A stretch of 64,000 bases of DNA. It comes from Escherichia phage vB_EcoM_DE16. Shown one piece after another: positions 53,161 through 64,000 of the stretch; the first letter of the stretch is position 1; every line of letters starts with the position of its first letter. The translations under genes and the position numbers were made by a program. The stretch lies in sequence record OP595145.1. The stretch is one strand, 5' to 3'. Below the pieces are notes generated by a model. That model saw nothing but the letters and a program-made list of their open reading frames with translations, did no database searches and was not told the origin of the DNA.

Positions 53161-53519
53161 GCCAGGATAGGACACCTAACCAAAAATGCATATCGCCCCG
53201 CGCCCCTGGTGGGATCTTGCTTTCCCCGCCGCCACTGCAAGCCCATAAATAACCATCAGCGAACGGATCAAAGTTTTCTATTTCTTCCACCTTATGATCG
53301 CCCAGGTTGAGAACGGTTTCAACCTTTAAGCCCGTTGCGCTTGCTACCTGGTGCACCGTGCCGCCTTGCCAGCCCAATGAGTGCATAAGGTGTAATGTAG
53401 TATTTGTCATGGTATCGCCCTTTCTTTGTTGTGCGCCCTGGTTGGCGCGGTAGAAAGATGATAGCCGTTTCCTTCATATACAGCAAGCAAAAAGAAAATA
53501 AAAAAGATTGAAAAAGTGG

Positions 53520-53548
53520 TTGACGTTCCTCACCTGGTAGCGTAGTAT
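53520..53548 (+). promoter_or_regulatory. sigma70-like promoter with long leader
   Basis: TTGACG, 17 nt, TAGTAT; ~135-nt leader before ATG 53683. Confidence 0.4.
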
Positions 53549-53682
53549 TCATCTTGTCGAGGGGGCGCGGCACAACGACAATAAACAACAGGAGGGCGCA
53601 ATGTAGGACGGGCAAAGGTGAGGATCTCCATAATCCACCGTCCACCAACAAAAAACATCATTCATCACCTGGAGTTAAAATC

Positions 53683-53880
53683 ATGGCAACATTGCACATA
53701 GTAGCGAAAGCAGGACAAATCAGCGTCGTGGTAAACGGTTTTACTGAGTTCAGTCATCCCCAGGATGATCATGAAACGGTTTTATCTTTTATTGATTCCT
53801 TGTTAGAAATGGGAGTCATTACAGAAGACCAGCACGCTACAAAATGCAAGCGCGTTAATCAAATTGCAGGGATAGAATAA
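53683..53880 (+). CDS. hypothetical early protein
   Basis: Track ORF trimmed to ATG after GGAG; 65 aa. Confidence 0.35.
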   Translation: MATLHIVAKAGQISVVVNGFTEFSHPQDDHETVLSFIDSLLEMGVITEDQHATKCKRVNQIAGIE

Positions 53881-53886
53881 AAAGTA

Positions 53887-53946
53887 TTGACAACAAACAA
53901 CAACCTGATAAGATGTATCACATAGGGCGGGAAGTGGTTTCCCGCT
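53887..53946 (+). promoter_or_regulatory. promoter plus 5'UTR stem-loop cassette
   Basis: TTGACA, 16 nt, TAAGAT; hairpin GGGCGGGAA-GTGG-TTTCCCGC; then AGAGAGATTATCATC-ATG. Confidence 0.5.
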
Positions 53947-53970
53947 CGTAACAGAAGAGAGATTATCATC

Positions 53971-54243
53971 ATGGCATCATATAGCGCAACAATGATCGTA
54001 GCTGGCACAACTGGTAAACCTATGAGCGGTGGCGGATCTTTCGCTAATATCAATATTGACGGGCGTTTATCCCTGGACGCAGCGATTGCCATTGCACGGG
54101 AAACATTTAAAAAAGAATGTAATTTCAATAAGCAAGATTATTTAGGTTTCGCTATTGAAAAAACCGCGCGCTTTGTTGATTATAAAAGCCCGAAAATGAT
54201 CGACACTACACTAAAAGCGCAAGATGTAGCGTTTTTGCTTTAA
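53971..54243 (+). CDS. hypothetical early protein
   Basis: 90 aa; cassette-supplied RBS and ATGGC start. Confidence 0.45.
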   Translation: MASYSATMIVAGTTGKPMSGGGSFANINIDGRLSLDAAIAIARETFKKECNFNKQDYLGFAIEKTARFVDYKSPKMIDTTLKAQDVAFLL

Positions 54244-54246
54244 GGC

Positions 54247-54302
54247 TTGACATTAACGAATAATTTGTTAATATGTTACATAAAGCGGGAATAGTTCCCG
54301 CT
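54247..54302 (+). promoter_or_regulatory. promoter plus 5'UTR stem-loop cassette
   Basis: TTGACA, 16 nt, TAATAT; hairpin AGCGGGAA-TAG-TTCCCGCT. Confidence 0.5.
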
Positions 54303-54319
54303 ATTTGTAAGGTGGTAGA

Positions 54320-54577
54320 ATGTTTTACATCAAATTAAAAGGTCACGTGATCGCGTTCAAAGATAACGCTTTTTACAGATTAGCAAAATATGCGTTAATA
54401 CATCCCCACTATGTTTATATAAGGGGGCGTGATGAAATAAATATCTTTGATCAAACAACATGCGAGAACATCGAGATCCGCAAGGTTGGCGTACGTGACT
54501 ATCGTACATCTTTCTACCCTTGCAAGGATTCAGCAAGTCTTTTTAAAGTATGCCAATTGTTGAAAAAAGGTGGTTAA
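54320..54577 (+). CDS. hypothetical early protein
   Basis: 85 aa; GGTGG RBS. Confidence 0.4.
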   Translation: MFYIKLKGHVIAFKDNAFYRLAKYALIHPHYVYIRGRDEINIFDQTTCENIEIRKVGVRDYRTSFYPCKDSASLFKVCQLLKKGG

Positions 54578-54578
54578 T

Positions 54579-55136
54579 ATGGGCCGCGAATATGTGATCC
54601 AGTCTTGGGTAAAACATGAAGCAGATGATCCGCGCATCATTCCCGATCATCTTATCGATGAATCCACGGGATATAGCGGTGAGCAAATAGGTAACAGATT
54701 AGCACGTAGTAACGGCAACGTAAAAGCGCGTTATGTGCGCCCTGGCTGGCTGGCAAATGGTAACGCTGATTTATCCAGTGCGGAAGATGCGAGCGACGGC
54801 GCGAAAGATAATCCTTTGTACAAAATTGATCCGGCTTTTCGTGTCCTGGATGAATACCCCAGCAAGATAGCGGCGCTCGATCAGGCCCTGGAAAGTAAGC
54901 GCATCACCTGGACCGCTTACAACATGGCAAAAAACGTACTTGATGGTAAATTGATTCAAGCTGAAAGAAAATTAGCCAAAATTGCAGCCATAGCCCAGGA
55001 GGAAGACGAGGAGACAACGGAAGAGGAAGAGTACGAAGAGATCCCGCCGTTGTTGTGTGTTGATGCTTTTCCTGATTATCAGCCGACAGAGGAAGAAAAA
55101 AGGATCGCACTAGAAAACTTTGAAAATAGTCTTTGA
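54579..55136 (+). CDS. hypothetical protein with acidic C-terminal region
   Basis: Track ORF trimmed to ATG after AAAGGTGG; 185 aa. Confidence 0.4.
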   Translation: MGREYVIQSWVKHEADDPRIIPDHLIDESTGYSGEQIGNRLARSNGNVKARYVRPGWLANGNADLSSAEDASDGAKDNPLYKIDPAFRVLDEYPSKIAALDQALESKRITWTAYNMAKNVLDGKLIQAERKLAKIAAIAQEEDEETTEEEEYEEIPPLLCVDAFPDYQPTEEEKRIALENFENSL

Positions 55137-55189
55137 CATATCGCCGCCACTGGCATAATATTTACCACGTAGGGCGGCAATGGTGCCGC
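55134..55189 (+). promoter_or_regulatory. promoter plus 5'UTR stem-loop cassette
   Basis: TTGACA, CATAAT/TAATAT; hairpin GGCGGCA-ATGG-TGCCGC. Confidence 0.5.
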
Positions 55190-55218
55190 TCATAGTGAAA
55201 TTATGCAAGAGGCTTACA

Positions 55219-55314
55219 ATGATTAATAAAGAAAATAGCTTGACGGTTGGAACGATTAACGCTATCATTCTAGCCGTTCCATTTTGGGTTGTAGTAGCGG
55301 CTATTATTTTCTAA
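55219..55314 (+). CDS. small membrane peptide (31 aa), not in supplied ORF track
   Basis: CAAGAGG RBS; MINKENSLTVGTINAIILAVPFWVVVAAIIF. Confidence 0.3.
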   Translation: MINKENSLTVGTINAIILAVPFWVVVAAIIF

Positions 55315-55322
55315 AAATATTC

Positions 55323-55383
55323 TTGACAACGTTTTTTAATCTGATAAGATGTATCACATAGGGCGGCGGAATACTTCCCCGCC
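55323..55383 (+). promoter_or_regulatory. promoter plus 5'UTR stem-loop cassette
   Basis: TTGACA, 16 nt, TAAGAT; hairpin GGGCGGCGGAA-TAC-TTCCCCGCC. Confidence 0.5.
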
Positions 55384-55406
55384 AAAACAAAAAAAAGGGT
55401 AACACA

Positions 55407-55769
55407 ATGAGCAAGCAAATCAATACTATCATGTTTAATCTGGTATCTTTCCGCGATGATATGAAAAATTTACCACGTGAAACGGTTGATATCCATGTTT
55501 CAGCTTATCGCGCCCTTATTGATATGTTACCGCTAAAACGTGATCAACATGCCGCTAATATGATGCTTAATGCTATGCTTAAAAAGATGATTCAAACGGA
55601 TCTTACTCTGGCGTATGAGTATCAAGGGCGCTTATATGCGACTTACAACAAAGCGGTACCTGGTCTGGGAAGTACCGAAGAGTTGCACGGCTTAAACCTG
55701 GATCAAAACACTTGGGATAGTATGCGCCGCGTTATGGTATGGGCCGAAAGCGGTAAAATTTACGAATAA
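55407..55769 (+). CDS. hypothetical early protein
   Basis: 120 aa. Confidence 0.45.
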   Translation: MSKQINTIMFNLVSFRDDMKNLPRETVDIHVSAYRALIDMLPLKRDQHAANMMLNAMLKKMIQTDLTLAYEYQGRLYATYNKAVPGLGSTEELHGLNLDQNTWDSMRRVMVWAESGKIYE

Positions 55770-55775
55770 AAACGG

Positions 55776-55832
55776 TTGACACTGTTTAAACTTCTGGTAT
55801 AGTTTATCACGTAGGGCGGCAATGGTGCCGCC
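55776..55832 (+). promoter_or_regulatory. promoter plus 5'UTR stem-loop cassette
   Basis: TTGACA, 16 nt, TATAGT; hairpin GGCGGC-AATGG-TGCCGCC. Confidence 0.5.
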
Positions 55833-55852
55833 AACAATAAAAGGTTAACATC

Positions 55853-56032
55853 ATGGCTATCATTGCAAAAACTGAGATTATAGGTTTAGATTCGATCCTC
55901 CTGGCTTATGAGGAAACTTTAAAAATGTATGTAGTGACCTATGGTGATTATGTGCGTGAATACGAATACATTGATCTTGCTTTCGAATGTTACATTCGCC
56001 AGGTCAATAAAGCCTATAACGATTATCGTTAA
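55853..56032 (+). CDS. hypothetical small protein (59 aa), not in supplied ORF track
   Basis: AAAGG RBS; ATGGCT start as in other cassette genes. Confidence 0.35.
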   Translation: MAIIAKTEIIGLDSILLAYEETLKMYVVTYGDYVREYEYIDLAFECYIRQVNKAYNDYR

Positions 56033-56051
56033 AAGTTTTAGTCTTATACTA

Positions 56052-56103
56052 TTGACAATGAGTGATAGTATAAGCATAATAACTTTTATCGGGAATACTT
56101 CCC
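56052..56103 (+). promoter_or_regulatory. promoter plus short 5'UTR stem-loop cassette
   Basis: TTGACA, 17 nt, CATAAT; hairpin GGGAA-TAC-TTCCC. Confidence 0.45.
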
Positions 56104-56129
56104 ACTAACCAAAAAGAGAGATTATCATC

Positions 56130-56495
56130 ATGGCTATTAATATCAATGTTTCCGCTTATGCTACCCTGGCTAACACGGCTAAAATTGAATTATCCAGCAT
56201 TGAAGCGGTGCACATTAGCGCCCGTCGCTGGTTTCAACAGTCCTACGGTAACACATATTTTTCTTTAATGGTTGACGTTGAGATCGGCGGTAAACTGATC
56301 GAGGTGGTTAACGTTCCGTTTCAATATGGCTATGGTGATCATTTTGATACCGTCGCCCTGGAAGAATTTAGCAAGGTTATTAATATGGAAGGTAAAGAGT
56401 TTTCACGCGGCGCGTATCTTTCCCGTTTTTGCCGTGACAATGGGATCACTGTATACAGTCATGCGAGCGATGTTAAACGTAAAAAAGATTTATAA
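56130..56495 (+). CDS. hypothetical early protein
   Basis: 121 aa; AGAGAGATTATCATC-ATGGCT. Confidence 0.45.
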   Translation: MAININVSAYATLANTAKIELSSIEAVHISARRWFQQSYGNTYFSLMVDVEIGGKLIEVVNVPFQYGYGDHFDTVALEEFSKVINMEGKEFSRGAYLSRFCRDNGITVYSHASDVKRKKDL

Positions 56496-56501
56496 AAAGC
56501 A

Positions 56502-56560
56502 TTGACAGCACGAATAAAAAGAGTAAACTGTATTACATAGAGAGCGGGAATACTTCCCGC
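56502..56560 (+). promoter_or_regulatory. promoter plus 5'UTR stem-loop cassette
   Basis: TTGACA, 16 nt, TAAACT; hairpin GCGGGAA-TAC-TTCCCGC. Confidence 0.5.
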
Positions 56561-56584
56561 CTCACTGAAAAAGAGATTAATATC

Positions 56585-56824
56585 ATGGCTAAATCAAAAA
56601 TGTTCTTAGGTCACAAAAATAAAACTCATTGGAATGTAAGCCTTTGGATTAATAATGACGAATCATTATATCGGTTGGCGAAAGAATTTATCGCCGCTAA
56701 TACTAATCGTAATGATGCTGCCCGTGATATGATGTTATTCCTGGAACAAACTGGACAAGATAAAACTCCAGACGGTTTCAAGTATAGCACTACAGCGATC
56801 CGCGCCGCGATGGTTGGAATGTAA
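56585..56824 (+). CDS. hypothetical early protein
   Basis: 79 aa. Confidence 0.45.
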   Translation: MAKSKMFLGHKNKTHWNVSLWINNDESLYRLAKEFIAANTNRNDAARDMMLFLEQTGQDKTPDGFKYSTTAIRAAMVGM

Positions 56825-56833
56825 TAAAAACAG

Positions 56834-56893
56834 TTGACAACGTTTAAAATTAGTGTAAGATGTATCACATAGGGCGGGAAGTGGTTTCCCGCC
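56834..56893 (+). promoter_or_regulatory. promoter plus 5'UTR stem-loop cassette
   Basis: TTGACA, 16 nt, TAAGAT; hairpin GGGCGGGAA-GTGG-TTTCCCGCC (same as the 53887 copy). Confidence 0.5.
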
Positions 56894-56914
56894 AAAACAG
56901 AGAGATTAAAGATT

Positions 56915-57142
56915 ATGGCTATCAATATTGTTCGCGTATCCGGCACCGTTGGCACTTCCCAGGTTATTGCAGTTGTAACAAACAAAAAGATTAATGATGT
57001 ATGTGAGATCTTGAATAAGTGGGCTGTTGCTAATTTTGGGGAATATGCAAGCGTCGAGTACATCGAATCCTACCAGGTGCCAACCATCAGCCTAACCGAT
57101 CTCAACGTTGATCGCCTGTTATGCCTGGATGAATTAATCTGA
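56915..57142 (+). CDS. hypothetical early protein
   Basis: 75 aa. Confidence 0.45.
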   Translation: MAINIVRVSGTVGTSQVIAVVTNKKINDVCEILNKWAVANFGEYASVEYIESYQVPTISLTDLNVDRLLCLDELI

Positions 57143-57151
57143 AAAAGATTG

Positions 57152-57207
57152 TTGACACGGGAAAGAAAAAGAGTAAACTGTATTACGTAGGGCGGCAATA
57201 GTGCCGC
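57152..57207 (+). promoter_or_regulatory. promoter plus 5'UTR stem-loop cassette
   Basis: TTGACA, 16 nt, TAAACT; hairpin GGCGGCA-ATAG-TGCCGC. Confidence 0.5.
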
Positions 57208-57232
57208 TCACAACAGAAGAGAGATTATCACG

Positions 57233-57448
57233 ATGGCTAATATCCGTACACTGTTAAAAAATGCAAGTCAAGTTTTATTTTCAGATGACGAGTATTTCAA
57301 TAAAGACATTACAGGCGTAAAAAATCTTAAAGATGTAAAGGATGTGATAGGTATTCGCGGATCTTTACGTAAAGGTGACTACTACGGCAATAAAGTACAA
57401 TATAAATTAAATCAGTCTTATGATTTTACTTTGACAATTATTTCATAA
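57233..57448 (+). CDS. hypothetical early protein
   Basis: 71 aa. Confidence 0.45.
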   Translation: MANIRTLLKNASQVLFSDDEYFNKDITGVKNLKDVKDVIGIRGSLRKGDYYGNKVQYKLNQSYDFTLTIIS

Positions 57449-57454
57449 AACCGC

Positions 57455-57516
57455 TTGCAATCTTAATAAAATAAAGTAAACTGTATTACATCAAGGCGGC
57501 GGAATGGTCCACCGCC
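57455..57516 (+). promoter_or_regulatory. promoter plus 5'UTR stem-loop cassette
   Basis: TTGCAA, 16 nt, TAAACT; hairpin GGCGGCGGA-ATGG-TCCACCGCC. Confidence 0.45.
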
Positions 57517-57540
57517 TAACAAAGAGAAGAGGAAAACACC

Positions 57541-57708
57541 ATGATCACTTTCGCTACCCGTGAAGCCGCTCGCAACGTTGCCCGTAAAGTTAACGCCGCC
57601 AACCTGGGCGCTACGTTTAAAGCACCTGTAAAAGATGAATCAGGGAAATGGATCTTCCCTGGTCTGCGTCATGCTGACAAGTTAGGTACTTTAAGCCTTA
57701 AAAAATAA
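57541..57708 (+). CDS. hypothetical small basic protein (55 aa), not in supplied ORF track
   Basis: AGAGGAAAA RBS; MITFATREAARNVARKVNAANLG... Confidence 0.35.
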   Translation: MITFATREAARNVARKVNAANLGATFKAPVKDESGKWIFPGLRHADKLGTLSLKK

Positions 57709-57711
57709 TCG

Positions 57712-57749
57712 TTGACTTTTCGTTATAGCGCCTTATAATGGGCGCTATA
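57712..57749 (+). promoter_or_regulatory. sigma70-like promoter with -10 box inside a perfect palindrome
   Basis: TTGACT, 16 nt, TATAAT; inverted repeat TATAGCGCC / GGCGCTATA brackets the -10. Confidence 0.45.
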
Positions 57750-57782
57750 GAGAAGAGAAACCACTACTAACAAGGAAACATC

Positions 57783-58004
57783 ATGATCACTTTCGCTATT
57801 GTCGCCGTTGTCGCTGGTCAGGTTTACGTAAACGATACATTCACCACAGAAGACAAGGCCGCAGGAGACATAACCGCCGTTTACAATAAGTGCAAGGCAG
57901 TAGAAAGGATGTTAGCGCCTTGTATGTTAATGAGTGAACGCCAGGACGGGATAACAGTGTTTACTAACATTGAAACAGGGTACCAAATGGTAGTAACAAA
58001 ATAA
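57783..58004 (+). CDS. hypothetical early protein
   Basis: 73 aa; hydrophobic N-terminus MITFAIVAVVAG. Confidence 0.4.
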   Translation: MITFAIVAVVAGQVYVNDTFTTEDKAAGDITAVYNKCKAVERMLAPCMLMSERQDGITVFTNIETGYQMVVTK

Positions 58005-58007
58005 AGC

Positions 58008-58065
58008 TTGACACGGATTTAATTTTCAGTAAACTGTTACACGTAGGGCGGGAATAGTTCCCGCT
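58008..58065 (+). promoter_or_regulatory. promoter plus 5'UTR stem-loop cassette
   Basis: TTGACA, 16 nt, TAAACT; hairpin GGGCGGGAA-TAG-TTCCCGC. Confidence 0.5.
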
Positions 58066-58082
58066 AAAAAGAGAGAAAGACC

Positions 58083-58969: not shown

Positions 58970-58988
58970 ATACAAAAAGGTAAATATT

Positions 58989-59195
58989 ATGATCACAACA
59001 AAACAAGAAAAAATTATTACAGACATTGCCGCAGTAGCCGCTATTGCTATTATTGGTACCTACTATGACACCGCGCGTCCTTCCTCCTTGCATGAGGTCG
59101 CCGCCGTTGCATCAGTTGGCGTACTGTTTTACGTTGGTAAACGCTATTTATCACCAATGATTAACAAGCTGACACCGTGGAAAAATAAAGGTTGA
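58989..59195 (+). CDS. small membrane protein
   Basis: 68 aa; two hydrophobic segments. Confidence 0.4.
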   Translation: MITTKQEKIITDIAAVAAIAIIGTYYDTARPSSLHEVAAVASVGVLFYVGKRYLSPMINKLTPWKNKG

Positions 59196-59250
59196 TCCTG
59201 TTTTATATTGTGTTATAGTTATCGTGTAGGGCGGCAATGGTGCCGCGCCC
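59192..59250 (+). promoter_or_regulatory. promoter plus 5'UTR stem-loop cassette
   Basis: TTGATC, 16 nt, TATAGT; hairpin GGCGGCA-ATGG-TGCCGC then GCCCTTTT. Confidence 0.45.
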
Positions 59251-59266
59251 TTTTGAGGATGCAATC

Positions 59267-59551
59267 ATGAGTAAAGCTAACACCGTGTTAATGTTTTCCC
59301 TAGTTAATGATGCCGCTCACTTGTCCAACATGACGCAGGAGGGTAACACATTAACGGCAACATTCACCAATAAGCTTGACCGAGTGATCATCATCTCACT
59401 GAAAACAGTTAGTAAAGGCTTTTACTCGTTAGCTTATCATTGGATCACCGATACCGATGAGACAAGCCAGGACTATAGCGCCCCTTTCCCTGAATCAATG
59501 GCACGGGAGATCATCGCCGCCGTTGTAAATGATGGTTTGTTTACTGCATAA
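59267..59551 (+). CDS. hypothetical early protein
   Basis: Track ORF trimmed to ATG after GAGGA; 94 aa. Confidence 0.4.
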   Translation: MSKANTVLMFSLVNDAAHLSNMTQEGNTLTATFTNKLDRVIIISLKTVSKGFYSLAYHWITDTDETSQDYSAPFPESMAREIIAAVVNDGLFTA

Positions 59552-59566
59552 AAATTTAGAAAAGGC

Positions 59567-59623
59567 TTGCAATAATTTTGAGATAGTGTATATTTAATTC
59601 ATAGGGCGGCGGGAATAGTTTCC
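59567..59623 (+). promoter_or_regulatory. promoter plus degenerate 5'UTR stem-loop cassette
   Basis: TTGCAA, 16 nt, TATATT; decayed hairpin GGGCGGCGGGAATAGTTTCC. Confidence 0.4.
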
Positions 59624-59646
59624 AAAGCAAACGAGAGGATTACACG

Positions 59647-59766
59647 ATGAGCAAGTACACAGTAGAATACACGGTAGAAAATCCGGCAGTATCCGAAGGT
59701 AAAAAGATGACATTTGCCATCAGTATAATCGCTTTCGTTGTCACTATCTTATCAATCATCTTATAA
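59647..59766 (+). CDS. small membrane peptide (39 aa), not in supplied ORF track
   Basis: GAGAGGA RBS; C-terminal TM segment; coordinates approximate. Confidence 0.3.
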   Translation: MSKYTVEYTVENPAVSEGKKMTFAISIIAFVVTILSIIL

Positions 59767-59776
59767 GGTGCACACC

Positions 59777-59938
59777 ATGAAAACAACAGACATTATCAAA
59801 GAGATCGCCCTTGCCGCTGGCGTTGAAGTCGAGGAAGTGATCGCGCTCAATCTTACAGAAAACGATCTGCGCAACTATGAAGCGGAAAGCGTGAAAGCAA
59901 GCGGCGCGGTCCTGGTATATGATCCGGCTAACAAGTAA
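59777..59938 (+). CDS. hypothetical small protein
   Basis: Track ORF trimmed to ATG after AGGTG; 53 aa. Confidence 0.35.
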   Translation: MKTTDIIKEIALAAGVEVEEVIALNLTENDLRNYEAESVKASGAVLVYDPANK

Positions 59939-59947
59939 GGGGATAAC

Positions 59948-60058
59948 ATGAATCCGAAAGATATGCAAGCATGGAAAGGGTACGACGATCTAAGCGCCTT
60001 GCGCAATAAGTCAAGCCGTAACCTTAGACGGTTGGAAGCAAAGAAAAAGAAAAAATAG
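59948..60058 (+). CDS. hypothetical small basic peptide (36 aa), not in supplied ORF track
   Basis: AAGGGG RBS; Lys-rich C-terminus. Confidence 0.3.
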   Translation: MNPKDMQAWKGYDDLSALRNKSSRNLRRLEAKKKKK

Positions 60059-60059
60059 T

Positions 60060-60115
60060 TTGACAAGTCCGCCTAGTCTGATAATATATATCTTGTAGGG
60101 CGGCAATGGTGCCGC
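60060..60115 (+). promoter_or_regulatory. promoter plus 5'UTR stem-loop cassette
   Basis: TTGACA, 17 nt, TAATAT; hairpin GGGCGGCA-ATGG-TGCCGC. Confidence 0.5.
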
Positions 60116-60136
60116 TCACAAGAAGAGAGAAAAATC

Positions 60137-60421
60137 ATGAAAATCACAAAAAGCCTAACTAATTATGCAGCACGTCGCGGATTATGTTTAACCGTTGAAA
60201 ACTTAGGGAAAGAAGACTTTTTGTGTTTTTGGGAGCTTGAAAATGATTGCGAGTGGATGTTTTCTTATTCTATCTGCGAAGATCAAAACGGTTGTTTGTT
60301 AACCTGGCGCGGTAATATCTATTTACCGGAAGAAATTAAAGAAGAGTTACCAGGTACGATCATGACAGAGAGACAGCTTAAGGAAATGATTAATTTTGTA
60401 GGGCAAAACATTAAAAAATAA
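60137..60421 (+). CDS. hypothetical early protein
   Basis: 94 aa. Confidence 0.45.
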   Translation: MKITKSLTNYAARRGLCLTVENLGKEDFLCFWELENDCEWMFSYSICEDQNGCLLTWRGNIYLPEEIKEELPGTIMTERQLKEMINFVGQNIKK

Positions 60422-60422
60422 T

Positions 60423-60483
60423 TTGACAGCACGCAAACAACGTAGTAAAGTTTACCACATAGGGCGGCGGAATGGTCCACCGC
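60423..60483 (+). promoter_or_regulatory. promoter plus 5'UTR stem-loop cassette
   Basis: TTGACA, 17 nt, TAAAGT; hairpin GGCGGCGG-AATGG-TCCACCGC. Confidence 0.5.
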
Positions 60484-60506
60484 TCACAACAGAAGAGAAA
60501 CAAATC

Positions 60507-60677
60507 ATGATCCCGACTATGTTTTATGTATCGCGCAAAGGTCACAATATTTTTTGGTCTGAAGATTTAAATGAAGCTATGACGTTTGCCCGTGATCGTG
60601 TTGCTATCGGTGGCGTTAACATCACCGTAACCGATGAAAACGGCATTGAATACTATAACGGCGACAATGAAGAGTAA
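60507..60677 (+). CDS. hypothetical small protein
   Basis: Track ORF trimmed to ATG downstream of the cassette; 56 aa. Confidence 0.4.
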   Translation: MIPTMFYVSRKGHNIFWSEDLNEAMTFARDRVAIGGVNITVTDENGIEYYNGDNEE

Positions 60678-60684
60678 TCAACAA

Positions 60685-60702
60685 GGCGGGATTAATCCCG
60701 CC
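60685..60702 (+). other. intergenic palindromic hairpin without promoter boxes
   Basis: GGCGGGAT-TA-ATCCCGCC perfect palindrome. Confidence 0.4.
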
Positions 60703-60721
60703 TGTATTAAAGGGTAATATA

Positions 60722-60859
60722 ATGAAAACTTTCAACGCAACAGCCTCGACAATTGGTTATATTATTACAGTGCAAGCCGTTGACCTGGTAGCGGCAGCAA
60801 ACAAGATTAAAAAGATGATCCCAACAGGCAGCGAATTTTCCGTTTGGGAAGTAAAATAA
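60722..60859 (+). CDS. hypothetical small protein (45 aa), not in supplied ORF track
   Basis: AAAGGG RBS; MKTFNATASTIGYIITVQAVDL... Confidence 0.3.
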   Translation: MKTFNATASTIGYIITVQAVDLVAAANKIKKMIPTGSEFSVWEVK

Positions 60860-60862
60860 AGC

Positions 60863-60923
60863 TTGACAATAATTTGTTATCTAGTAAAGTGTATTACGTA
60901 GGGCGGGGCAATGGTGCAACGCC
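60863..60923 (+). promoter_or_regulatory. promoter plus degenerate 5'UTR stem-loop cassette
   Basis: TTGACA, 15 nt, TAAAGT; hairpin GGGCGGGGCAATGGTGCAACGCC. Confidence 0.4.
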
Positions 60924-60942
60924 TACTAATGAGGGTAGAATC

Positions 60943-61047
60943 ATGTTAGAGAAAATTTTCACGGTTGCAGTGGTTGGCCTGGCGTTATCGGTTGGAGTAG
61001 TTGCAACTATGGCTAATATGATCCTATCTTCCCACGGTATCGGTTAA
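60943..61047 (+). CDS. small membrane peptide
   Basis: Track ORF trimmed to ATG after GAGGG; 34 aa hydrophobic. Confidence 0.3.
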   Translation: MLEKIFTVAVVGLALSVGVVATMANMILSSHGIG

Positions 61048-61048
61048 G

Positions 61049-61273
61049 GTGAAACAAATGATCACGAATAAGACAGGTAAAACGGAATTTTTACGCAGCT
61101 TGCAAGTTGGTAAACCTGAGATTTGGCATTGTACTAAATCCGCGCATAATGAAATGAAAGATTTTACCGCTACTTTACAACGTGTTAAAATATCTATCAC
61201 ACAGAAAAAAGCCTTGTTAGTAGTAGAAAACGAGATCCCGCAAACTATTATTATTGTCGAGCGTACAGCATGA
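61049..61273 (+). CDS. hypothetical early protein
   Basis: 74 aa; AAGGTG RBS. Confidence 0.4.
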   Translation: MKQMITNKTGKTEFLRSLQVGKPEIWHCTKSAHNEMKDFTATLQRVKISITQKKALLVVENEIPQTIIIVERTA

Positions 61274-61656
61274 AAACAGAAATCATTATTGAAATCATCA
61301 ACGGCTATAAAGAAGCCTTTATTTTTGCTGAATCAGCAAGGGATCATGAAGGTAATTTTATTGATAACTTAGACGATTATGATTTTTCTCCTAGCGCAGA
61401 TCAACGGATCGCCCAGGATGTAACAGCCTTTATTAATGCTAATCTTGCCGCTATCTCTGAGGCAATGAGCGACGGCGCAACAGCCAACCAGATCGGGAAT
61501 GATTTACATTTTACCCGTAACGGTCACGGCGTAGGCTTTTGGGATCGCCCTGAAATATACACCACTAACACAGCCAACCGCCTAACCAATGCAGCTAAGT
61601 TTATGCCGAACGTGTCGGCTTACATTGGTGAAGATAATTTGATTTATATTGAATAA
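61270..61656 (+). CDS. hypothetical early protein
   Basis: 128 aa; ATGA coupling. Confidence 0.45.
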   Translation: MKTEIIIEIINGYKEAFIFAESARDHEGNFIDNLDDYDFSPSADQRIAQDVTAFINANLAAISEAMSDGATANQIGNDLHFTRNGHGVGFWDRPEIYTTNTANRLTNAAKFMPNVSAYIGEDNLIYIE

Positions 61657-61662
61657 AAAGTA

Positions 61663-61718
61663 TTGACACAGATCGCCAGTGTGCTAATATTTACCACGTA
61701 GGGCGGCAATGGTGCCGC
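61663..61718 (+). promoter_or_regulatory. promoter plus 5'UTR stem-loop cassette
   Basis: TTGACA, 16 nt, TAATAT; hairpin GGGCGGCA-ATGG-TGCCGC. Confidence 0.5.
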
Positions 61719-61739
61719 TCCCCGAAAAAGGTAAACATT

Positions 61740-61931
61740 ATGAAAACCATCTCCTACCTGGAATCGAATAACATGTTTTTTGCGCCCGTTGATGAAATCA
61801 TCGAAGCATTAAACAACGAGGAAGGGATCAAAGGTTTATCTTATAGCCAACTTTTAGGAATGGTTGCAGCAAATGAAGAGCTTGCTTACTATGTTGAAAA
61901 TTTTGATGAAGCTGTAATCTTTACAAAATAA
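61740..61931 (+). CDS. hypothetical early protein
   Basis: 63 aa. Confidence 0.4.
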   Translation: MKTISYLESNNMFFAPVDEIIEALNNEEGIKGLSYSQLLGMVAANEELAYYVENFDEAVIFTK

Positions 61932-61934
61932 TCC

Positions 61935-61991
61935 TTGATCTAATCTCTTAGATAACTTATATTTAATGCGTAGGGCGGCAATGGTGCCGCC
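61935..61991 (+). promoter_or_regulatory. promoter plus 5'UTR stem-loop cassette
   Basis: TTGATC, 17 nt, TATATT; hairpin GGGCGGCA-ATGG-TGCCGCC. Confidence 0.5.
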
Positions 61992-62009
61992 GATAATGAG
62001 GAAAGTAAA

Positions 62010-62309
62010 ATGGAAACTATCGCTATTGTTACCGTAGAAAAACTGGTTGTTGGTGATGTATTCGCGTTAATGGTGCCTAACAGTAGCAAGCTGGGCGCTT
62101 ATGAAGTGATGGATCATAAAAATGAATCATTTGGCGACGGTTGCACAATGGCGGTAAAATCTTTAAAGGATGGAATCATCCGTCAAGCTAATTGGCACAA
62201 AGGGAATCAAGTCGGATTAATATCAGCTAATTTCTTGCCAGAAGAGCAAACGTTAGACCAACTATCAGGCGGTAAGACGTTAGCCGAACTACTGGAAACA
62301 GCGATCTAA
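62010..62309 (+). CDS. hypothetical early protein
   Basis: 99 aa. Confidence 0.45.
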   Translation: METIAIVTVEKLVVGDVFALMVPNSSKLGAYEVMDHKNESFGDGCTMAVKSLKDGIIRQANWHKGNQVGLISANFLPEEQTLDQLSGGKTLAELLETAI

Positions 62310-62317
62310 TCAACAAA

Positions 62318-62333
62318 GGGGCGGCAACGCCCC
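62318..62333 (+). other. intergenic GC hairpin (second family), no promoter boxes
   Basis: GGGGCG-GCAA-CGCCCC. Confidence 0.4.
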
Positions 62334-62353
62334 ACATCAGAAAGGAAAAGATT

Positions 62354-62590
62354 ATGAGTATTGCAACAGTATTAACCGCCGTTAAAACCGCTGAATCATC
62401 CGGCTTGCATGTTGAGCTTATAGATCAACCAGGTGGCGATCTCCTTGTCCAGGTTTACCCGCCGAAAGTAGGAGATGATTATTATTGGTGCTATTCTGAT
62501 ACGTTCGAACAAGTAGACACGAAAGCGATCACAGCTTTTATTTTAAAAGCCATTGAAGAAAATAACTTTCATCATAACATCAAGCAATAA
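62354..62590 (+). CDS. hypothetical early protein
   Basis: 78 aa. Confidence 0.45.
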   Translation: MSIATVLTAVKTAESSGLHVELIDQPGGDLLVQVYPPKVGDDYYWCYSDTFEQVDTKAITAFILKAIEENNFHHNIKQ

Positions 62591-62599
62591 ACCATAAGC

Positions 62600-62615
62600 G
62601 GGGCGGTAACGCCCC
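62600..62615 (+). other. intergenic GC hairpin (second family), no promoter boxes
   Basis: GGGGCG-GTAA-CGCCCC. Confidence 0.4.
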
Positions 62616-62645
62616 ATTAAACGCAATAGGAAGAGGCTAGAAAGC

Positions 62646-62930
62646 ATGAAAAAGATGATCGCAGTAGTTGCCCTGGTTGTTGGTATTAACGCGCCTGTAA
62701 TGGCTAATGAGTTGCCTGAATCCATCACGTTAACCGATATCAACGCAATAAACCGGATCGGTGTTAATTATCGCCTATGCCTTGCCGCTAAAACTTTCCA
62801 GGATGGCACGACAGAATACCACGGATTCGAGGGTATCCGCTGCGGTGAGCTTGCACGCGACCTTAAGGAAGATCCAGACCTTGAGGCCATACCGATGACC
62901 GTAAACGGTAAAGCCCAGGTAAACCGCTAA
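62646..62930 (+). CDS. secreted protein with signal peptide
   Basis: 94 aa; MKKMIAVVALVVGINAPVMA. Confidence 0.45.
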   Translation: MKKMIAVVALVVGINAPVMANELPESITLTDINAINRIGVNYRLCLAAKTFQDGTTEYHGFEGIRCGELARDLKEDPDLEAIPMTVNGKAQVNR

Positions 62931-62932
62931 CC

Positions 62933-63067
62933 ATGAGAAAGGTAATCATCACAATGGGGATCGTAGTAGCAACGCTGGCGCTTATTCCCTTCCTGGTTGA
63001 ATATGTGCTGATTAATGTTGTCCTGGTAGTCAGTGACCTATTGGAAACGGTTGGCAACTGGTTTTAA
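62933..63067 (+). CDS. small membrane peptide (44 aa), not in supplied ORF track
   Basis: ATG 2 nt after upstream stop; two hydrophobic segments. Confidence 0.3.
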   Translation: MRKVIITMGIVVATLALIPFLVEYVLINVVLVVSDLLETVGNWF

Positions 63068-63075
63068 GATAAATA

Positions 63076-63105
63076 AACAGGGCTTGTTTTTGTCCTGTTT
63101 TTTGT
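63076..63105 (+). terminator. weak terminator-like hairpin
   Basis: AACAGG-(12-nt loop)-CCTGTT then TTTTTTG. Confidence 0.3.
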
Positions 63106-63242
63106 TATACTTATTGAACGGGCGGCACCTGGGAGCAGGTGAAGATAATCACCGGACGACCCCGCTATATATTGATAGCTAACATCTATCAAACAACAAA
63201 ACATCAAAGGAATAAACTATCAAATCTTTACAATCCTACCTA

Positions 63243-63301
63243 TTGACACCGGATCACGCTTACATTATCATTTATCACGTAGGGCGGGAATGTTTCCCGC
63301 C
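63243..63301 (+). promoter_or_regulatory. promoter plus 5'UTR stem-loop cassette
   Basis: TTGACA, 15 nt, CATTAT; hairpin GGGCGGGAA-TGT-TTCCCGCC. Confidence 0.5.
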
Positions 63302-63319
63302 TGATTTAGGAGTCATATC

Positions 63320-63553
63320 ATGATCGAACAAATTAAAAGCACTAAACCAAATGTTAACGGTAATGTTTCTCACTTTATCGGGGATAATGAAAGAGGTACA
63401 CCGTACGCCGCCGTAACCGTTCAACCGAACGGGGATTATTGGTTTACCGTGTACGGATCTTACTCTTTTGGACGTTCGGCACATGATAAGATCTTGCAAG
63501 TGGTTAAGCCTACTGGGAAGAATATCACAGCAGAAAAATTTTATAAAAAATAA
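63320..63553 (+). CDS. hypothetical early protein
   Basis: 77 aa; AGGAG RBS. Confidence 0.45.
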   Translation: MIEQIKSTKPNVNGNVSHFIGDNERGTPYAAVTVQPNGDYWFTVYGSYSFGRSAHDKILQVVKPTGKNITAEKFYKK

Positions 63554-63554
63554 C

Positions 63555-63615
63555 TTGCTTTATAGCTCTTGTTAACTTATAGTTATTGCGTAGGGCGAGC
63601 AATACAGCAAGCCCA
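63555..63615 (+). promoter_or_regulatory. promoter plus degenerate 5'UTR stem-loop cassette
   Basis: TTGCTT, 17 nt, TATAGT; decayed hairpin GGGCGAGCAATACAGCAAGCCC. Confidence 0.35.
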
Positions 63616-63631
63616 CAAAGAGGAAAAGAAG

Positions 63632-64000
63632 ATGAGCAAATCAGCAATTAAAGCAGTTGAAAAAGCGCAAGAAGTGATCGCAACGTCAACCACTGGCGCA
63701 AAGGTTAATCTCGTTGGTTATCTGACAGATGAAACTATCCGTAAAAATTGGCATAATGCTGATTTACTGGCTTGCTTATTGATTAATAGTGTCGCTAATG
63801 CTTTCCAGTGTGAAACAGCCGAGAGCCTGGAGGAAAACTTGTTTGATAATATGGATCAAGCCATTGAAACCTATATACAATCAAACCTGGATAGCTGGAA
63901 CAGTAAAACATGGCCCGACAATTTACGCGATACAACTGATCAACTGATCCGCCTTGCCCTGATGGTTGAACGCGATAACGTTCACAACCGCACAAAGTAA
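63632..64000 (+). CDS. hypothetical early protein
   Basis: Track ORF trimmed to ATG after AGAGGAAAAG; stop at window end. Confidence 0.4.
   Translation: MSKSAIKAVEKAQEVIATSTTGAKVNLVGYLTDETIRKNWHNADLLACLLINSVANAFQCETAESLEENLFDNMDQAIETYIQSNLDSWNSKTWPDNLRDTTDQLIRLALMVERDNVHNRTK

Follow-up and report, generated by a model that had tools for sequence, protein, structure and literature searches.

An array of small, probably early genes in Escherichia phage vB_EcoM_DE16 forms a compositional island with host-like codon and dinucleotide usage

The right end of the 64,000-nt stretch of Escherichia phage vB_EcoM_DE16 analysed here (OP595145.1; hereafter the window) carries some 35 tiny genes in an array, and the large, sharply bounded change that sets it apart is one of synonymous and dinucleotide composition rather than of bulk GC. 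The island occupies 53551..64000 on the + strand and contains about 35 small ORFs (median 71 aa, 77% coding); its GC3 is 0.408, its CpG observed/expected ratio is about 1.2, and its delta* to the rest of the window is 149. The region is a hyperplastic gene array of a Phapecoctavirus-like myophage; the array genes are ORFans and probably belong to the immediate-early class. PHROG families are matched by 29 of the 30 array proteins tested, every match being a phage family of unknown function, and Pfam returned a single DUF only. The gene calls come from a heuristic of this analysis and are consistent with the deposited annotations of relatives, a few ORFs below 45 aa being doubtful. The explanation we favour, with reasonable though not high confidence, is that the array is a cassette pool exchanged among coliphages, which brings the composition of the pool into the phage.

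The compositional step has its edge at about 53.0–53.7 kb, in agreement with the boundary of 53.5 kb given in the initial annotation, and the right edge of the island, as placed in the relative tuntematon L001, lies some 2 kb outside the window. On the left, a border zone with no strand assigned (52341..53550) consists, in this order, of an AT-rich gap bearing repeats (52341-52900), a 500-nt stretch that has the highest GC in the window (49.8%), together with a conserved − strand gene with a GC content of 49% and a GC3 of 0.51 (53144-53410), and a divergent promoter region. The rise in bulk GC is real but trivial and barely separates the region from the rest: GC is 41.15% in 53501-64000 and 39.07% in 1-53500, a difference of +2.1 points, and the best non-overlapping 10.5-kb segment (1-10,500) reaches 40.91%. 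The initial description of a visibly GC-richer region beside AT-rich blocks was thus correct in direction but overstated in degree. Its other compositional remarks hold, since CTGGCG, GCCGCC, and CGCGCC strings are 4–19 times denser right of 53.5 kb, and 19 perfect GC-rich hairpins occur in the 10.5 kb of the region compared with 13 in the other 53.5 kb.

The host-like codon choices that had been proposed for these genes are strongly confirmed, and the codon-usage calculation finds a significant but incomplete shift. GC3 is 0.408 in the array compared with 0.291, 0.305, and 0.343 in three other blocks (per-gene Mann–Whitney p = 1.5e-10), and the synonymous codon fractions correlate with those of average E. 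coli genes at r 0.77 in the array and 0.53–0.55 in the other blocks. Codon periodicity is intact (GC1 0.49, GC2 0.36, GC3 0.41). The fraction of CGC is 0.44 in the array vs. 0.10 in the rest, that of CCG 0.35 vs. 0.09, that of GGC 0.28 vs. 0.10, and that of ATC 0.49 vs. 0.26. Array GC3 nevertheless stays between phage and host; CTG reaches just 0.20 (E. coli 0.54), TTA goes up, and ACA, CAA, and the Val codons are still phage-like. The bulk of the shift is from T3 to C3 within codons of the same tRNA; G3 is near constant (0.16–0.19 to 0.175), and the two-fold codon families are static (0.32 to 0.33). GC3 is homogeneous over the 35 array genes (chi-square p = 0.095), which makes a large number of donors of unlike composition less probable.

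The dinucleotide shift goes beyond what the first reading had noticed. The CpG observed/expected ratio per 2-kb bin is 0.52–0.90 in all bins left of 52 kb and 1.09–1.31 in all bins right of 54 kb; it is at least 0.8 in 34 of the 35 array genes, with a median of 1.26 vs. 0.71 (p = 9e-13). Against the delta* of 149 between the region and the rest, equal-sized chunks of the rest give 36 ± 10 with a maximum of 56. The delta* to E. coli is 71 for the region and 135 for the bulk, and individual values in the region are near those of E. coli (CpG 1.19 vs. 1.16, GpC 1.32 vs. 1.26, AG/CT 0.81 vs. 0.85). Dinucleotides that span the codon boundary (3|1) show a step of the same strength: CpG rises from 0.68 to 1.13, GpC from 1.02 to 1.29.

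Most array genes follow their own conserved PeSL-like linker of 75–95 nt, in which a stop codon is followed by an A-rich tract, a strong sigma-70 promoter, the conserved GTATyACrTA, a GC-rich hairpin, a ribosome-binding site, and the ATG; the exact 21-mer GTAGGGCGGCAATGGTGCCGC is present in at least six linkers, and the + strand of 53.8–63.3 kb holds about 20 sigma-70 sites that match at 10 or more of 12 positions. The PeSL cassettes of T4-type phages, which provide a precedent (PMC2839356, PMC4122927), do the same job as these linkers. All linkers are on the + strand. In the linker cassette at 53881..53970, TTGACA (53887) is followed after 16 nt by TAAGAT, a hairpin (53925-53947), the ribosome-binding site, and the ATG. 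Linker cassettes with a promoter and a hairpin, given in this order, are found at 54244..54319 (54247-54274, 54284-54302), 55133..55218 (55133-55161, 55172-55191, the latter GGGCGGCAATGGTGCCGCTC), 55315..55406 (55323-55350, bulged hairpin at about 55362-55383), 55770..55852 (55776-55805, 55815-55832), 56033..56129 (56052-56080, weak hairpin 56091-56103), 56496..56584 (56502-56529, 56544-56560), 56825..56914 (56834-56861, 56873-56893), 57143..57232 (57152-57179, 57190-57209), 58005..58082 (58008-58035, 58047-58065), 58437..58515 (58443-58470, 58479-58496), 58904..58988 (58910-58937, 58952-58966), 60059..60136 (60060-60087, 60098-60117), 60422..60506 (60423-60451, about 60462-60485), 60860..60942 (60863-60890, about 60898-60926), 61657..61739 (61663-61690, 61701-61720), and 63183..63319 (63243-63271, 63282-63302). 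The promoter is of the TTGCAA type in the linker cassette at 57449..57540 (hairpin at about 57494-57517) and in the linker at 59552..59646, whose degenerate hairpin is without fold support; it is weak in the linkers at 59196..59266 (hairpin 59231-59246) and 63554..63631 (divergent hairpin at about 63593-63616), and the −35 is weak in the linker cassette at 61932..62009 (hairpin 61974-61991). In a variant linker at 57709..57782, with its promoter at 57712-57739, an inverted repeat (57723-57750) lies over the −10 hexamer, and tuntematon and Mt1B1_P17 carry a 308–310-nt insertion here. Two linkers are promoter-less: that at 58663..58717, where a hairpin (58669-58689) is followed by TTTCTTTTT and forms the sole canonical intrinsic terminator in the hairpin set, and a short one at 60678..60721 (hairpin 60684-60703). 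Short linkers at 62310..62353 (hairpin 62318-62333, GGGGCGGCAACGCCCC) and 62591..62645 (hairpin 62600-62615, GGGGCGGTAACGCCCC) flank the gene 62354-62590.

Comparison with close relatives revealed four cases in which a single gene is present or absent, along with three insertion sites; the indels end within the repeated promoter-hairpin linkers, where the alignments overlap by 16–62 nt. The + strand cassette gene 55853..56032 is missing in 536P1 and B15, with a 38-nt overlap in the flanking linkers; 57233..57448 (+), whose GC3 of 0.23 is the array minimum, is missing in 536P1, with a 32-nt overlap; 61740..61931 (+), which has no PHROG family, is missing in tuntematon and Mt1B1_P17, with overlaps of 62 and 34 nt, the linkers 61657..61739 and 61932..62009 being the left and right repeats of this indel; and 62354..62590 (+) is missing in 536P1 and B15, the junction being a 16-nt hairpin and the two short linkers its left and right ends. 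These differences support gene flux that goes cassette by cassette, and the cassette-wise acquisition suggested initially is in this respect borne out.

The same association recurs elsewhere, the composition step and the linker array coinciding in four phage groups. The relative 536P1, with a 149-kb genome, has no other such island genome-wide; in Justusliebigvirus alia the island coincides with the linker array, and in the unrelated jumbo phage 121Q it coincides with a spaced-gene array (CpG 1.17 vs. 0.69–0.83 in the flanks). Against Justusliebigvirus alia, median amino acid identity is 81% for the array and 61% for flanking core orthologues, and synonymous third-position identity is 0.77 and 0.52–0.57, respectively; against phiWec179, nucleotide identity is 0.886 in the array and 0.76 in the core. 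Similarity in the array is mosaic, gene by gene, and eight of its genes have counterparts in 121Q, where their order is scrambled and they come with hairpins and the same type of linker. The cassette gene 56585..56824 (+, DUF7249) has 96% amino acid identity in 121Q and 82% in the congeneric ESCO5; the 121Q nucleotide match begins 65 nt upstream of its ATG, within the linker, whose 3′ portion (56517 onwards) is conserved there along with the gene. Shared genes keep a GC of 0.40–0.43, a GC3 of 0.39–0.46, and a CpG of 1.0–1.3 in five phage backgrounds, while the GC3 of the sampled backgrounds is 0.24–0.41. Array codon usage correlates at r 0.93–0.97 between lineages and at r 0.74–0.85 with the bulk of its own lineage; in phiWec179 the array–array correlation still exceeds the array–bulk correlation, though array and bulk have about the same GC3. 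Composition goes with the genes rather than with the resident genome. These sequence comparisons support a history of the array separate from that of the core, and to this extent the different-source origin proposed in the initial annotation stands.

In the cassette-pool explanation, the linkers would act as short homology stretches for recombination, and linker–linker recombination would delete, insert, or replace single gene cassettes, a mechanism suggested by where the indel end points fall. Exchange could take place within one genome and between co-infecting coliphages, including those of unrelated families (Vequintavirinae, Asteriusvirus). Pool genes would keep the composition of the pool (GC about 41%, GC3 about 0.41, CpG about 1.2, E. 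coli-like dinucleotides), and within the resident genome, whose core has a GC3 of about 0.30 and a CpG of about 0.7, the incoming CpG/GpC excess would erode by substitution. Host RNA polymerase would transcribe the array first, and the hairpin of each transcript would lie about 3 nt from its 5′ end and may stabilise the RNA. It counts against the pool that a donor genome with its signature did not turn up and that E. coli genomes gave no match.

Recent substitutions suggest that array composition is away from equilibrium, with the CpG/GpC excess eroding by ordinary substitution. Among singleton substitutions in the array, 106 CpG/GpC were lost and 59 gained (p = 3e-4), compared with 178 lost and 168 gained in the core (not significant; array vs. 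core, Fisher p = 0.008); singletons include mildly deleterious changes later purged by selection, so this loss is compatible with selective maintenance. The equilibrium GC3 of the array, as estimated from its substitutions, is 0.35–0.37 (CI 0.28–0.44), marginally above the core value (z = 2.0, p = 0.046); since the interval spans the present 0.41 and the equilibrium exceeds that of the core, the composition may be upheld by some force.

Still in contention with the cassette pool is selection for early mRNAs of host-like composition. Immediate-early genes, transcribed by host RNA polymerase and read by unmodified host translation before phage tRNAs accumulate, would take on host-like codons and mRNA, acquisition history being secondary; we regard this as possible, if rather doubtful. 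The phenomenon is known: in lambda the early but not the late genes share the codon preference of the host, and codon usage separates early and late genes in half of the 14 phages examined (PMC5683454). The dense near-consensus promoters, the uniform GC3, and the constancy of shared genes in five backgrounds fit it, as do fewer rare host codons (3.5% vs. 5.7%, p = 2e-4) and higher CAI and tAI, the latter with weights from E. coli tRNA gene numbers. A close relative encodes tRNAs for AGA, GGA, CCA, ACA, and CAA, and AGA, GGA, and CCA are used 2–3 times less in the array. One codon dialect in all sampled arrays would also be expected from such selection, which counts against the cassette pool. 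However, the array resembles average rather than highly expressed E. coli genes (r 0.77 vs. 0.53), the codon shift is incomplete and largely among codons of the same tRNA, and the two-fold families are unmoved though G:C vs. G:U wobble concerns them too. The equal step at the codon boundary, where dinucleotides are not read by any tRNA, and the net CpG/GpC loss also speak against it, as do the adjacent, tightly packed small + strand genes (46.3–52.3 kb; 95–110 kb of 536P1), which are bulk-like in composition, the only property compared. The host-like composition may have been inherited from the origin of the genes, or it may be maintained by selection on early mRNAs.

Direct uptake of the genes from E. 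coli, be it from the chromosome, prophages, or plasmids, with later partial amelioration to phage composition, would account for the low delta* to E. coli, the intermediate GC3, and the net CpG/GpC loss. We consider it improbable: megablast of the whole region and blastn of 53600-57540 against 5,426 complete E. coli genomes gave zero matches, which argues that the host was not the direct donor. The homologues that were found sit in virulent phages, and the PHROG and Pfam matches likewise point away from the host.

In a visibly recombinogenic region with raised GC3, silent-site GC could also be raised by GC-biased gene conversion or by a different mutational bias tied to recombination at a hot spot, but this is very improbable given the near-static G3, the unshifted two-fold families, the absence of an AT-to-GC excess among recent array substitutions (78 vs. 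103 in the opposite direction), and a specific dinucleotide pattern instead of a general GC gain. An artefact of frequent GC-rich hairpin repeats, of the 23% non-coding share, or of short or spurious ORFs is scarcely credible, as intergenic GC (0.414) equals coding GC (0.416), codon periodicity and PHROG matches are in place, equally short, tightly packed gene arrays have bulk composition, and the step, when tested, persists with coding sequence only (delta* 158; CpG 1.26 in coding and 0.99 in intergenic sequence).

The region in question is 96–98% identical to Escherichia phages BI-EHEC, dw-ec, Mt1B1_P17 and tuntematon, which belong to the genus Phapecoctavirus of the subfamily Stephanstirmvirinae and have genomes of ~150 kb. 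The gene calls made for this report agree with the deposited annotation of relatives and show + strand genes at 1–11 kb; − strand genes at 11–46.3 kb, among them helicase, ribonucleotide reductase and TerC-like genes according to the relatives' annotation; tightly packed + strand genes at 46.3–52.3 kb; and, from ~53.7 kb, ~35 very small + strand ORFs, most of them spaced by 75–95 nt and the others separated by shorter linkers or abutting directly. This last block, the array (53551–64000), has a median gene of 71 aa; 29 of the 30 array proteins tested fall into PHROG families, all of unknown function, a Pfam search with ten array proteins gave a single match, DUF7249, and no integrase-like gene was seen in the array among the PHROG matches. 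Scans of the 64-kb window for tRNAs and for Rfam families returned neither. In the packed block, the gene at 50047–51249, an endonuclease in the relatives' annotation, is the least conserved; a full-length nucleotide match is present in phage B15 only, the alignments of the other relatives break at 50162–50296, and the gene may be a mobile or rapidly replaced endonuclease.

The initial annotation described the region right of ~53.5 kb as GC-richer, with host-like codon choices, and the other blocks as AT-rich. The difference in GC exists but is small, 41.15% at 53501–64000 vs 39.07% in the rest of the window, and the contrast with AT-rich blocks was overstated, since the far-left 10.5-kb window reaches 40.9% GC. 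In codon usage the shift is strong: GC at third codon positions (GC3) is 0.408 in the array vs 0.291, 0.305 and 0.343 in the three other blocks (Mann–Whitney test on per-gene values, p = 1.5e-10), and it is hidden in bulk GC because GC1 is slightly lower in the array. Three- to four-fold changes between the array and the other blocks are found for CGC (0.44 and 0.10), CCG (0.35 and 0.09) and GGC (0.28 and 0.10), and ATC (0.49 and 0.26), AGC (0.27 and 0.11) and GCC (0.25 and 0.11) are roughly doubled. The shift is chiefly from T to C at the third position; GC3 rises from 0.25 to 0.41 in four- and six-fold families and from 0.26 to 0.49 in Ile, and two-fold families are static (0.32 to 0.33). 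Codon usage was compared with two reference sets extracted from the annotated E. coli K-12 genome: with 25 ordinary genes it correlates at 0.77 in the array and 0.53–0.55 in the other blocks, and with 29 highly expressed genes (ribosomal-protein, rpoA and elongation-factor genes) at 0.53 and 0.38–0.44. The vector of codon change follows the host-minus-phage-bulk difference with r = 0.76. The host-likeness is nevertheless partial, as CTG has a fraction of 0.20 in the array and 0.54 in the host, TTA is higher in the array, and ACA, CAA and the Val codons remain phage-like.

The proposed edge is borne out by a sharp step near 53.5 kb in codons, dinucleotides and hairpin density. The observed/expected ratio of CpG (CpG o/e) is 0.52–0.90 in all 26 of the 2-kb bins left of 52 kb and 1.09–1.31 in all five right of 54 kb. 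By the Karlin dinucleotide distance (δ*), the array lies at 149 from the rest of the window, and the values for chunks of array size taken from the rest are 36 ± 10 and never exceed 56; in codons and dinucleotides alike, the signature of the array falls outside the range of the resident genome. The distance to E. coli is 71 for the array and 135 for the rest, the smallest chunk value being 112, and 12 of the 16 dinucleotides match the host closely in the array, the exceptions being CC/GG, TA and CA/TG. In phage bulk, array and host, respectively, CpG is 0.69, 1.19 and 1.16; GpC is 0.98, 1.32 and 1.26; AG/CT is 1.03, 0.81 and 0.85; and AT is 0.89, 1.05 and 1.04. At the codon boundary (3|1), the corresponding values are 0.68, 1.13 and 1.07 for CpG and 1.02, 1.29 and 1.28 for GpC. 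Gene by gene, CpG o/e is at least 0.8 in 34 of the 35 array genes (median 1.26 vs 0.71, p = 9e-13). The hexamers and GC-rich hairpins to which the initial annotation had pointed are indeed concentrated here, the hexamers being 4–19 times denser inside the region and perfect hairpins ~7 times denser than in the rest of the window. The GC step is not due to the hairpins, since intergenic GC equals coding GC and coding sequence alone is as extreme (δ* 158, CpG 1.26; intergenic CpG 0.99). In addition, array-like CpG o/e values of 1.3–1.65 are found in small genes of the core blocks, at 13502–13669, 23065–23464, 25239–25487, 27483–27680, 43797–43970 and 44773–44910, which may be single imported genes.

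One type of linker, in variants, fills ~22 of the spacers. Its order is stop codon, A-rich tract, TTGACA, 16–17 nt, TAAgAT/TAAACT/TAATAT, GTATyACrTA, GC-rich hairpin, purine-rich RBS and ATG, the A-rich tract thus lying upstream of the promoter, and in ~20 linkers the promoter is strong and sigma-70-like (TTGACA, 16–17 nt, TAnnnT, with at least 10/12 matches). Promoter-like sites at 46–64 kb number 75, vs 47 ± 7 expected. Most hairpins belong to one of two classes, GGGCGGCAATGGTGCCGCyC and GGCGGGAAnnnTTCCCGCy. Folded one sequence at a time, 20 of the 22 linker segments give predicted folds of −11 to −21 kcal/mol, and 19 of these 20 have z ≤ −2 vs mononucleotide shuffles. Stem variants swap bases with pairing kept, e.g., GC 11 / CG 10 at one position, in counts that pool two stem classes of slightly different register and for which no formal covariation statistics are claimed; MAFFT and RNAalifold applied to the hairpin segments gave no consensus because the hairpin 3' arms were misaligned. 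The stem begins ~10 nt after the −10 hexamer, and a transcript that started at the usual distance would leave ~3 unpaired nt before the stem. Stem-loops at the 5' end are known to affect the decay of E. coli mRNA, and the promoter-linked hairpins, judged by their sequence and by analogy, look more like 5'-terminal stabilisers than terminators because a T run follows only 1–2 of the ~22. Four short linkers carry a hairpin without a promoter, and one such promoter-less hairpin, 58669–58689, has the sequence of a canonical intrinsic terminator. BLAST searches found the linker core in Phapecoctavirus, Justusliebigvirus, Vequintavirus-like, Cronobacter, Pectobacterium and Serratia phages; the deposited phAPEC8 record labels one linker site merely 'promoter', and literature searches on Phapecoctavirus and rV5-like phages turned up no account of such linkers or of an island of this composition. 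An isolated array-type linker also occurs outside the array on the − strand, at 32052–31994 (TTGACA, 16 nt, TAAGAT and the hairpin GCGGGGAATAGTTCCCCGC), upstream of the − strand gene 31976–31002, which is TerC-like in the relatives' annotation.

Alignment of the window with six close relatives shows that their arrays differ in cassette-sized pieces whose end points lie in linkers. Gene 55853–56032 is absent from 536P1 and B15, gene 57233–57448 from 536P1, gene 61740–61931 from tuntematon and Mt1B1_P17, and gene 62354–62590 from 536P1 and B15; together with these four single-gene presence/absence differences there are three insertion sites, at linkers near 57,770, 59,938 and 63,076, where relatives carry extra genes. 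At each indel junction, the alignment pieces share 16–62 nt of repeated linker. When compared with Justusliebigvirus alia, a phage of the sister genus, array orthologues have a median amino acid identity of 81% vs 61% for flanking core genes, and their third-position identity at conserved residues is 0.77 vs 0.52–0.57; 14 of the 35 array genes have no counterpart in alia. In the divergent congener phiWec179, nucleotide identity is 0.886 for the array and 0.76 for the core. Identity along the array is mosaic, with neighbours of 98% and 35% adjacent. Several array genes are present in Vequintavirus A141 at 67–86% identity, and gene 56585–56824 is 96% identical in 121Q (Asteriusvirus, a 349-kb jumbo phage) and 91–95% identical in other jumbo coliphages, vs 82% in the congeneric ESCO5. 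The 121Q homologue lies among ~50 small genes with spacers of ~85 nt that contain TTGCAA, 17 nt and TATAAT, after which come GCGGGAATAGTTCCCGC-type hairpins; the stretch that matches the window in nucleotide sequence starts 65 nt upstream of the start codon of 56585–56824, within the linker, and eight array genes of the window have homologues in the 121Q array, in a different order. For alia, phiWec179, A141 and 121Q, array genes and core genes give discordant levels of identity, in a comparison of identities rather than of trees. No donor, and no mobility gene at the borders, was identified: E. coli DNA gave no match, the window has no tRNA, and no integrase-like gene is among the PHROG matches of the array. 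The suggestion that the region came from a different source is partly supported: the array has had a history of its own, apart from that of the core, and its gene content changes one cassette at a time; the demonstrable source is a gene pool common to coliphages and not the host.

The island recurs in other phages. The 149-kb genome of 536P1, which is complete, has CpG > 1 nowhere but in the array and, if the tRNA cluster with its spurious ORF calls is set aside, GC3 > 0.35 nowhere else either; in the packed small + strand genes beyond the array, composition is that of bulk. The ten tRNA genes of 536P1 (OZ035728.1, 147255–149293) are Met (two), Arg-TCT, Ser-GCT, Asn-GTT, Thr-TGT, Gly-TCC, Gln-TTG, Pro-TGG and Ile-GAT, most of which read codons that E. 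coli uses rarely and the phage core often. The island of tuntematon ends ~2.1 kb past the right end of the window, at the switch from spaced to packed genes. In alia (37.7% GC), a 10-kb stretch with 12 detected linkers has GC3 0.37–0.40 vs 0.27–0.34 around it, and the dinucleotide signature of this linker region is within δ* 11 of the window array. At the Vequintavirus A141 locus, taken by itself, no clear island was seen at 2.5-kb resolution. The 'Campylobacter phage' records of B15 and A141 (MG065650.1 and MG065672.1), which are marked UNVERIFIED, are 95–98% identical to E. coli Phapecoctavirus/Vequintavirus genomes, and their Campylobacter host label is doubtful. The 121Q array has CpG 1.17 and 40% GC, and its flanks have CpG 0.69–0.83 and 34–37% GC; adjoining it (KM507819.1, 118001–131255) are about a dozen tandem RCC1-like genes, a family annotated 'DNA condensation protein' with a very low GC3 (0.235). 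Cassette genes shared across five phage backgrounds keep GC 0.40–0.43, GC3 0.39–0.46 and CpG 1.0–1.3, and the GC3 of the backgrounds sampled is 0.24–0.41. In phiWec179, bulk GC3 (0.41) is close to array GC3 (0.43), and the codon dialect of its array correlates at r = 0.74 with its own bulk and 0.96 with the window array. The bulk of phiWec179 or of Vequintavirus (GC3 ~0.41) is ruled out as the source composition because both its codon dialect and its dinucleotide signature are of the bulk kind, with r 0.74–0.84 and δ* 128–172 to the array. It can also be seen that core base composition has strongly diverged within the genus, since phiWec179 (LC739533.1, 81500–121300) has a core GC3 of ~0.41 vs 0.31 in the window; its core is only 73–80% identical to the window at the nucleotide level, and its array 80–99%.

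Among the alternatives to an imported composition, selection survives best: acting on an early expression class, it would keep messages host-like, and it may contribute to or even set the composition of the pool. The dense strong sigma-70 promoters of the array, the feature that suggests its genes belong to the earliest temporal class, agree with such selection, as do fewer rare host codons (3.5% vs 5.7%), a higher CAI (0.408 vs 0.379), a higher tAI (0.323 vs 0.284, computed with assumed E. coli tRNA gene copy numbers) and the 2–3 times lower use than in bulk of AGA, GGA and CCA, codons for which a close relative encodes tRNAs. A search of the literature found no transcriptome bearing on array timing. 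Differences between early and late codon usage in phages, with a host-like preference in early genes, have been reported by Mioduser et al. 2017 (PMC5683454), who cite an earlier lambda study, and the likeness consists in one temporal or positional gene class that is closer to host codons and better adapted to host tRNAs. The present case differs in that the block is sharply bounded and tied to linker architecture, the shift includes codon-boundary dinucleotides, the array resembles average and not highly expressed host genes, the signature is common to homologous genes of unrelated phages, and the temporal class is deduced from sequence. As the sole cause, selection is opposed by the dialect, which is that of ordinary and not of highly expressed host genes (r 0.77 vs 0.53), by Leu, Thr, Gln and Val, which are still phage-like, by the prevalence of T- to C-ending swaps within codons of the same tRNA, by the untouched two-fold families and by a step equally strong in codon-boundary dinucleotides; codon–tRNA matching does not explain the shift, given the ordinary-gene likeness, the phage-like amino acids and the codon-boundary CpG and GpC. 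GC3 is homogeneous among the 35 array genes (p = 0.095), which favours selection and argues against many donors of differing composition, from which gene-by-gene heterogeneity would be expected.

Substitutions polarised as singletons among 6–7 close genomes, a set that includes changes selection may still remove, comprise 78 AT-to-GC and 103 GC-to-AT changes at array third positions. The equilibrium GC3 is 0.35 (CI 0.28–0.42) vs 0.41 at present in the array and 0.27 (CI 0.23–0.31) vs 0.31 at present in the core, with intervals too wide to separate history from selection, and the two substitution regimes are only marginally different (z = 2.0). CpG or GpC was lost 106 times and gained 59 times among array singletons (p = 3e-4), and lost 178 and gained 168 times in the core (array vs core, Fisher p = 0.008). 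Because of this net loss, the array signature appears to be eroding under current mutation, which fits a composition inherited from the pool and renewed by import. When 5,426 E. coli genomes were searched at the DNA level, no match to the array was obtained that would support its direct capture from the host, and gBGC is ruled out by the base and codon-family pattern and by the substitution spectrum.

The closest known system is the PeSL cassette. According to Arbiol et al. 2010 (PMC2839356) and Comeau et al. 2014 (PMC4122927), PeSL cassettes occupy hyperplastic regions of T4-type phages, where ORFans are added, removed or swapped by recombination at the motif, with mini-circles among its products. 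The likeness covers a linker of ~80–100 nt with a strong sigma-70-like promoter, an A/T-rich upstream tract, a GC stem-loop and a Shine–Dalgarno sequence, its concentration among small ORFan genes, and close relatives that differ by single-gene insertions, deletions or replacements ending in the motifs. However, the lineage here is Stephanstirmvirinae, and also Vequintavirinae and Asteriusvirus, not T4-type; the hairpin is almost always downstream of the −10 hexamer, and would thus stand at the transcript 5' end, whereas in the RB49 and phi1 motifs it is mostly between or over the promoter hexamers; the rarity of T runs makes a terminator role doubtful; and the stem sequence is conserved as GCGGCAATGGTGCCGC or GCGGGAATAGTTCCCGC, unlike the poly-G/poly-C stems of PeSLs. 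In a term search of the main text of PMC2839356, 'GC content' was absent and 'codon' occurred three times, and a compositional island was not seen described there. Since the window is a Phapecoctavirus relative, the array is an analogue or extension and not a member of the T4 set; it extends the PeSL or hyperplastic-region concept to other phage families, and what is new to the concept is the compositional signature and the sharing between families.

Two further concepts are comparable. Lambdoid morons (Hendrix and colleagues; also discussed in PMC2839356) are genes of atypical base composition that bring a promoter and a terminator of their own. They occur in temperate phages as isolated insertions, illegitimate recombination is their presumed origin, and expression from the prophage is common. 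Like morons, the array genes are accessory autonomous transcription units whose composition, unlike that of their neighbours, betrays a separate history, but here a contiguous array of ~35 units lies in a virulent phage and a conserved linker is apparently the vehicle of exchange. In the amelioration concept of Lawrence and Ochman, the atypical signature of a genomic island drifts toward the resident genome; the atypical codon and dinucleotide signature, the patchy discordant distribution and the drift are also found here, but the array has no integrase, tRNA or direct-repeat borders, and it is permanent and syntenic across a virus group, with contents that turn over instead of a single insertion.

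A wider reading, which we consider unlikely, is that of a portable 'early-gene cassette' system common to unrelated virulent coliphages (Stephanstirmvirinae, Vequintavirinae and Asteriusvirus), in which the linker would have a triple role as expression signal, mRNA stabiliser and recombination site at once, like a promoter-bearing integron cassette without integrase, and the E. coli-like signature of the pool would be functional: the first transcripts or the first-entering DNA could look like host nucleic acid to host or phage nucleases, and the CpG-poor core would be handled differently. Host-takeover and anti-defence functions are being found among small early ORFans of large virulent phages, and, T4-type phages apart, little is understood of how such ORFans are acquired and traded. 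If the main reading, that of a cassette pool exchanged among coliphages, is true, the PeSL idea reaches three further coliphage groups, and a cassette pool crosses family boundaries and bears its own host-like composition. Steps in CpG o/e and GC3 that coincide with spaced small genes offer a cheap, annotation-free marker of exchange arrays in any large phage; for phage-therapy genomics, the array is the part of 96–98% identical phages that is likeliest to differ in host interaction. The question is also raised of why the core of these phages is CpG-depleted and the array is not.

To the left of the array lies an AT-rich (31% GC) non-coding gap at 52780–52888, and also at 52558–52767. Three to four palindromic ~20-mers (AATGAGAAnnnTTCTCATT / AATGATAATCATTCTCATT) recur in it every 29 nt, with direct repeats of 72 and 29 nt just upstream of them; the palindrome at 52864–52882 agrees with the E. 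coli Fur-box consensus at 16/19 positions, with 0.05 chance matches expected, and the site may be an origin, an iron-responsive promoter or an array of operators. The adjoining stretch 52900–53560 contains the GC-richest 500 nt of the window (49.8%). Within it, a non-coding GC-rich stretch at 53010–53105 is flanked by promoter-like and terminator-like sites; a small RNA there is without fold support (z = −1.2). The − strand gene 53144–53410, divergent from the array, encodes 88 aa with GC 49% and GC3 0.51; a Pfam search with it gave no match, and it is among the genes near the array most conserved between genera, with 91–95% amino acid and 93–94% nucleotide identity to alia and phiWec179.
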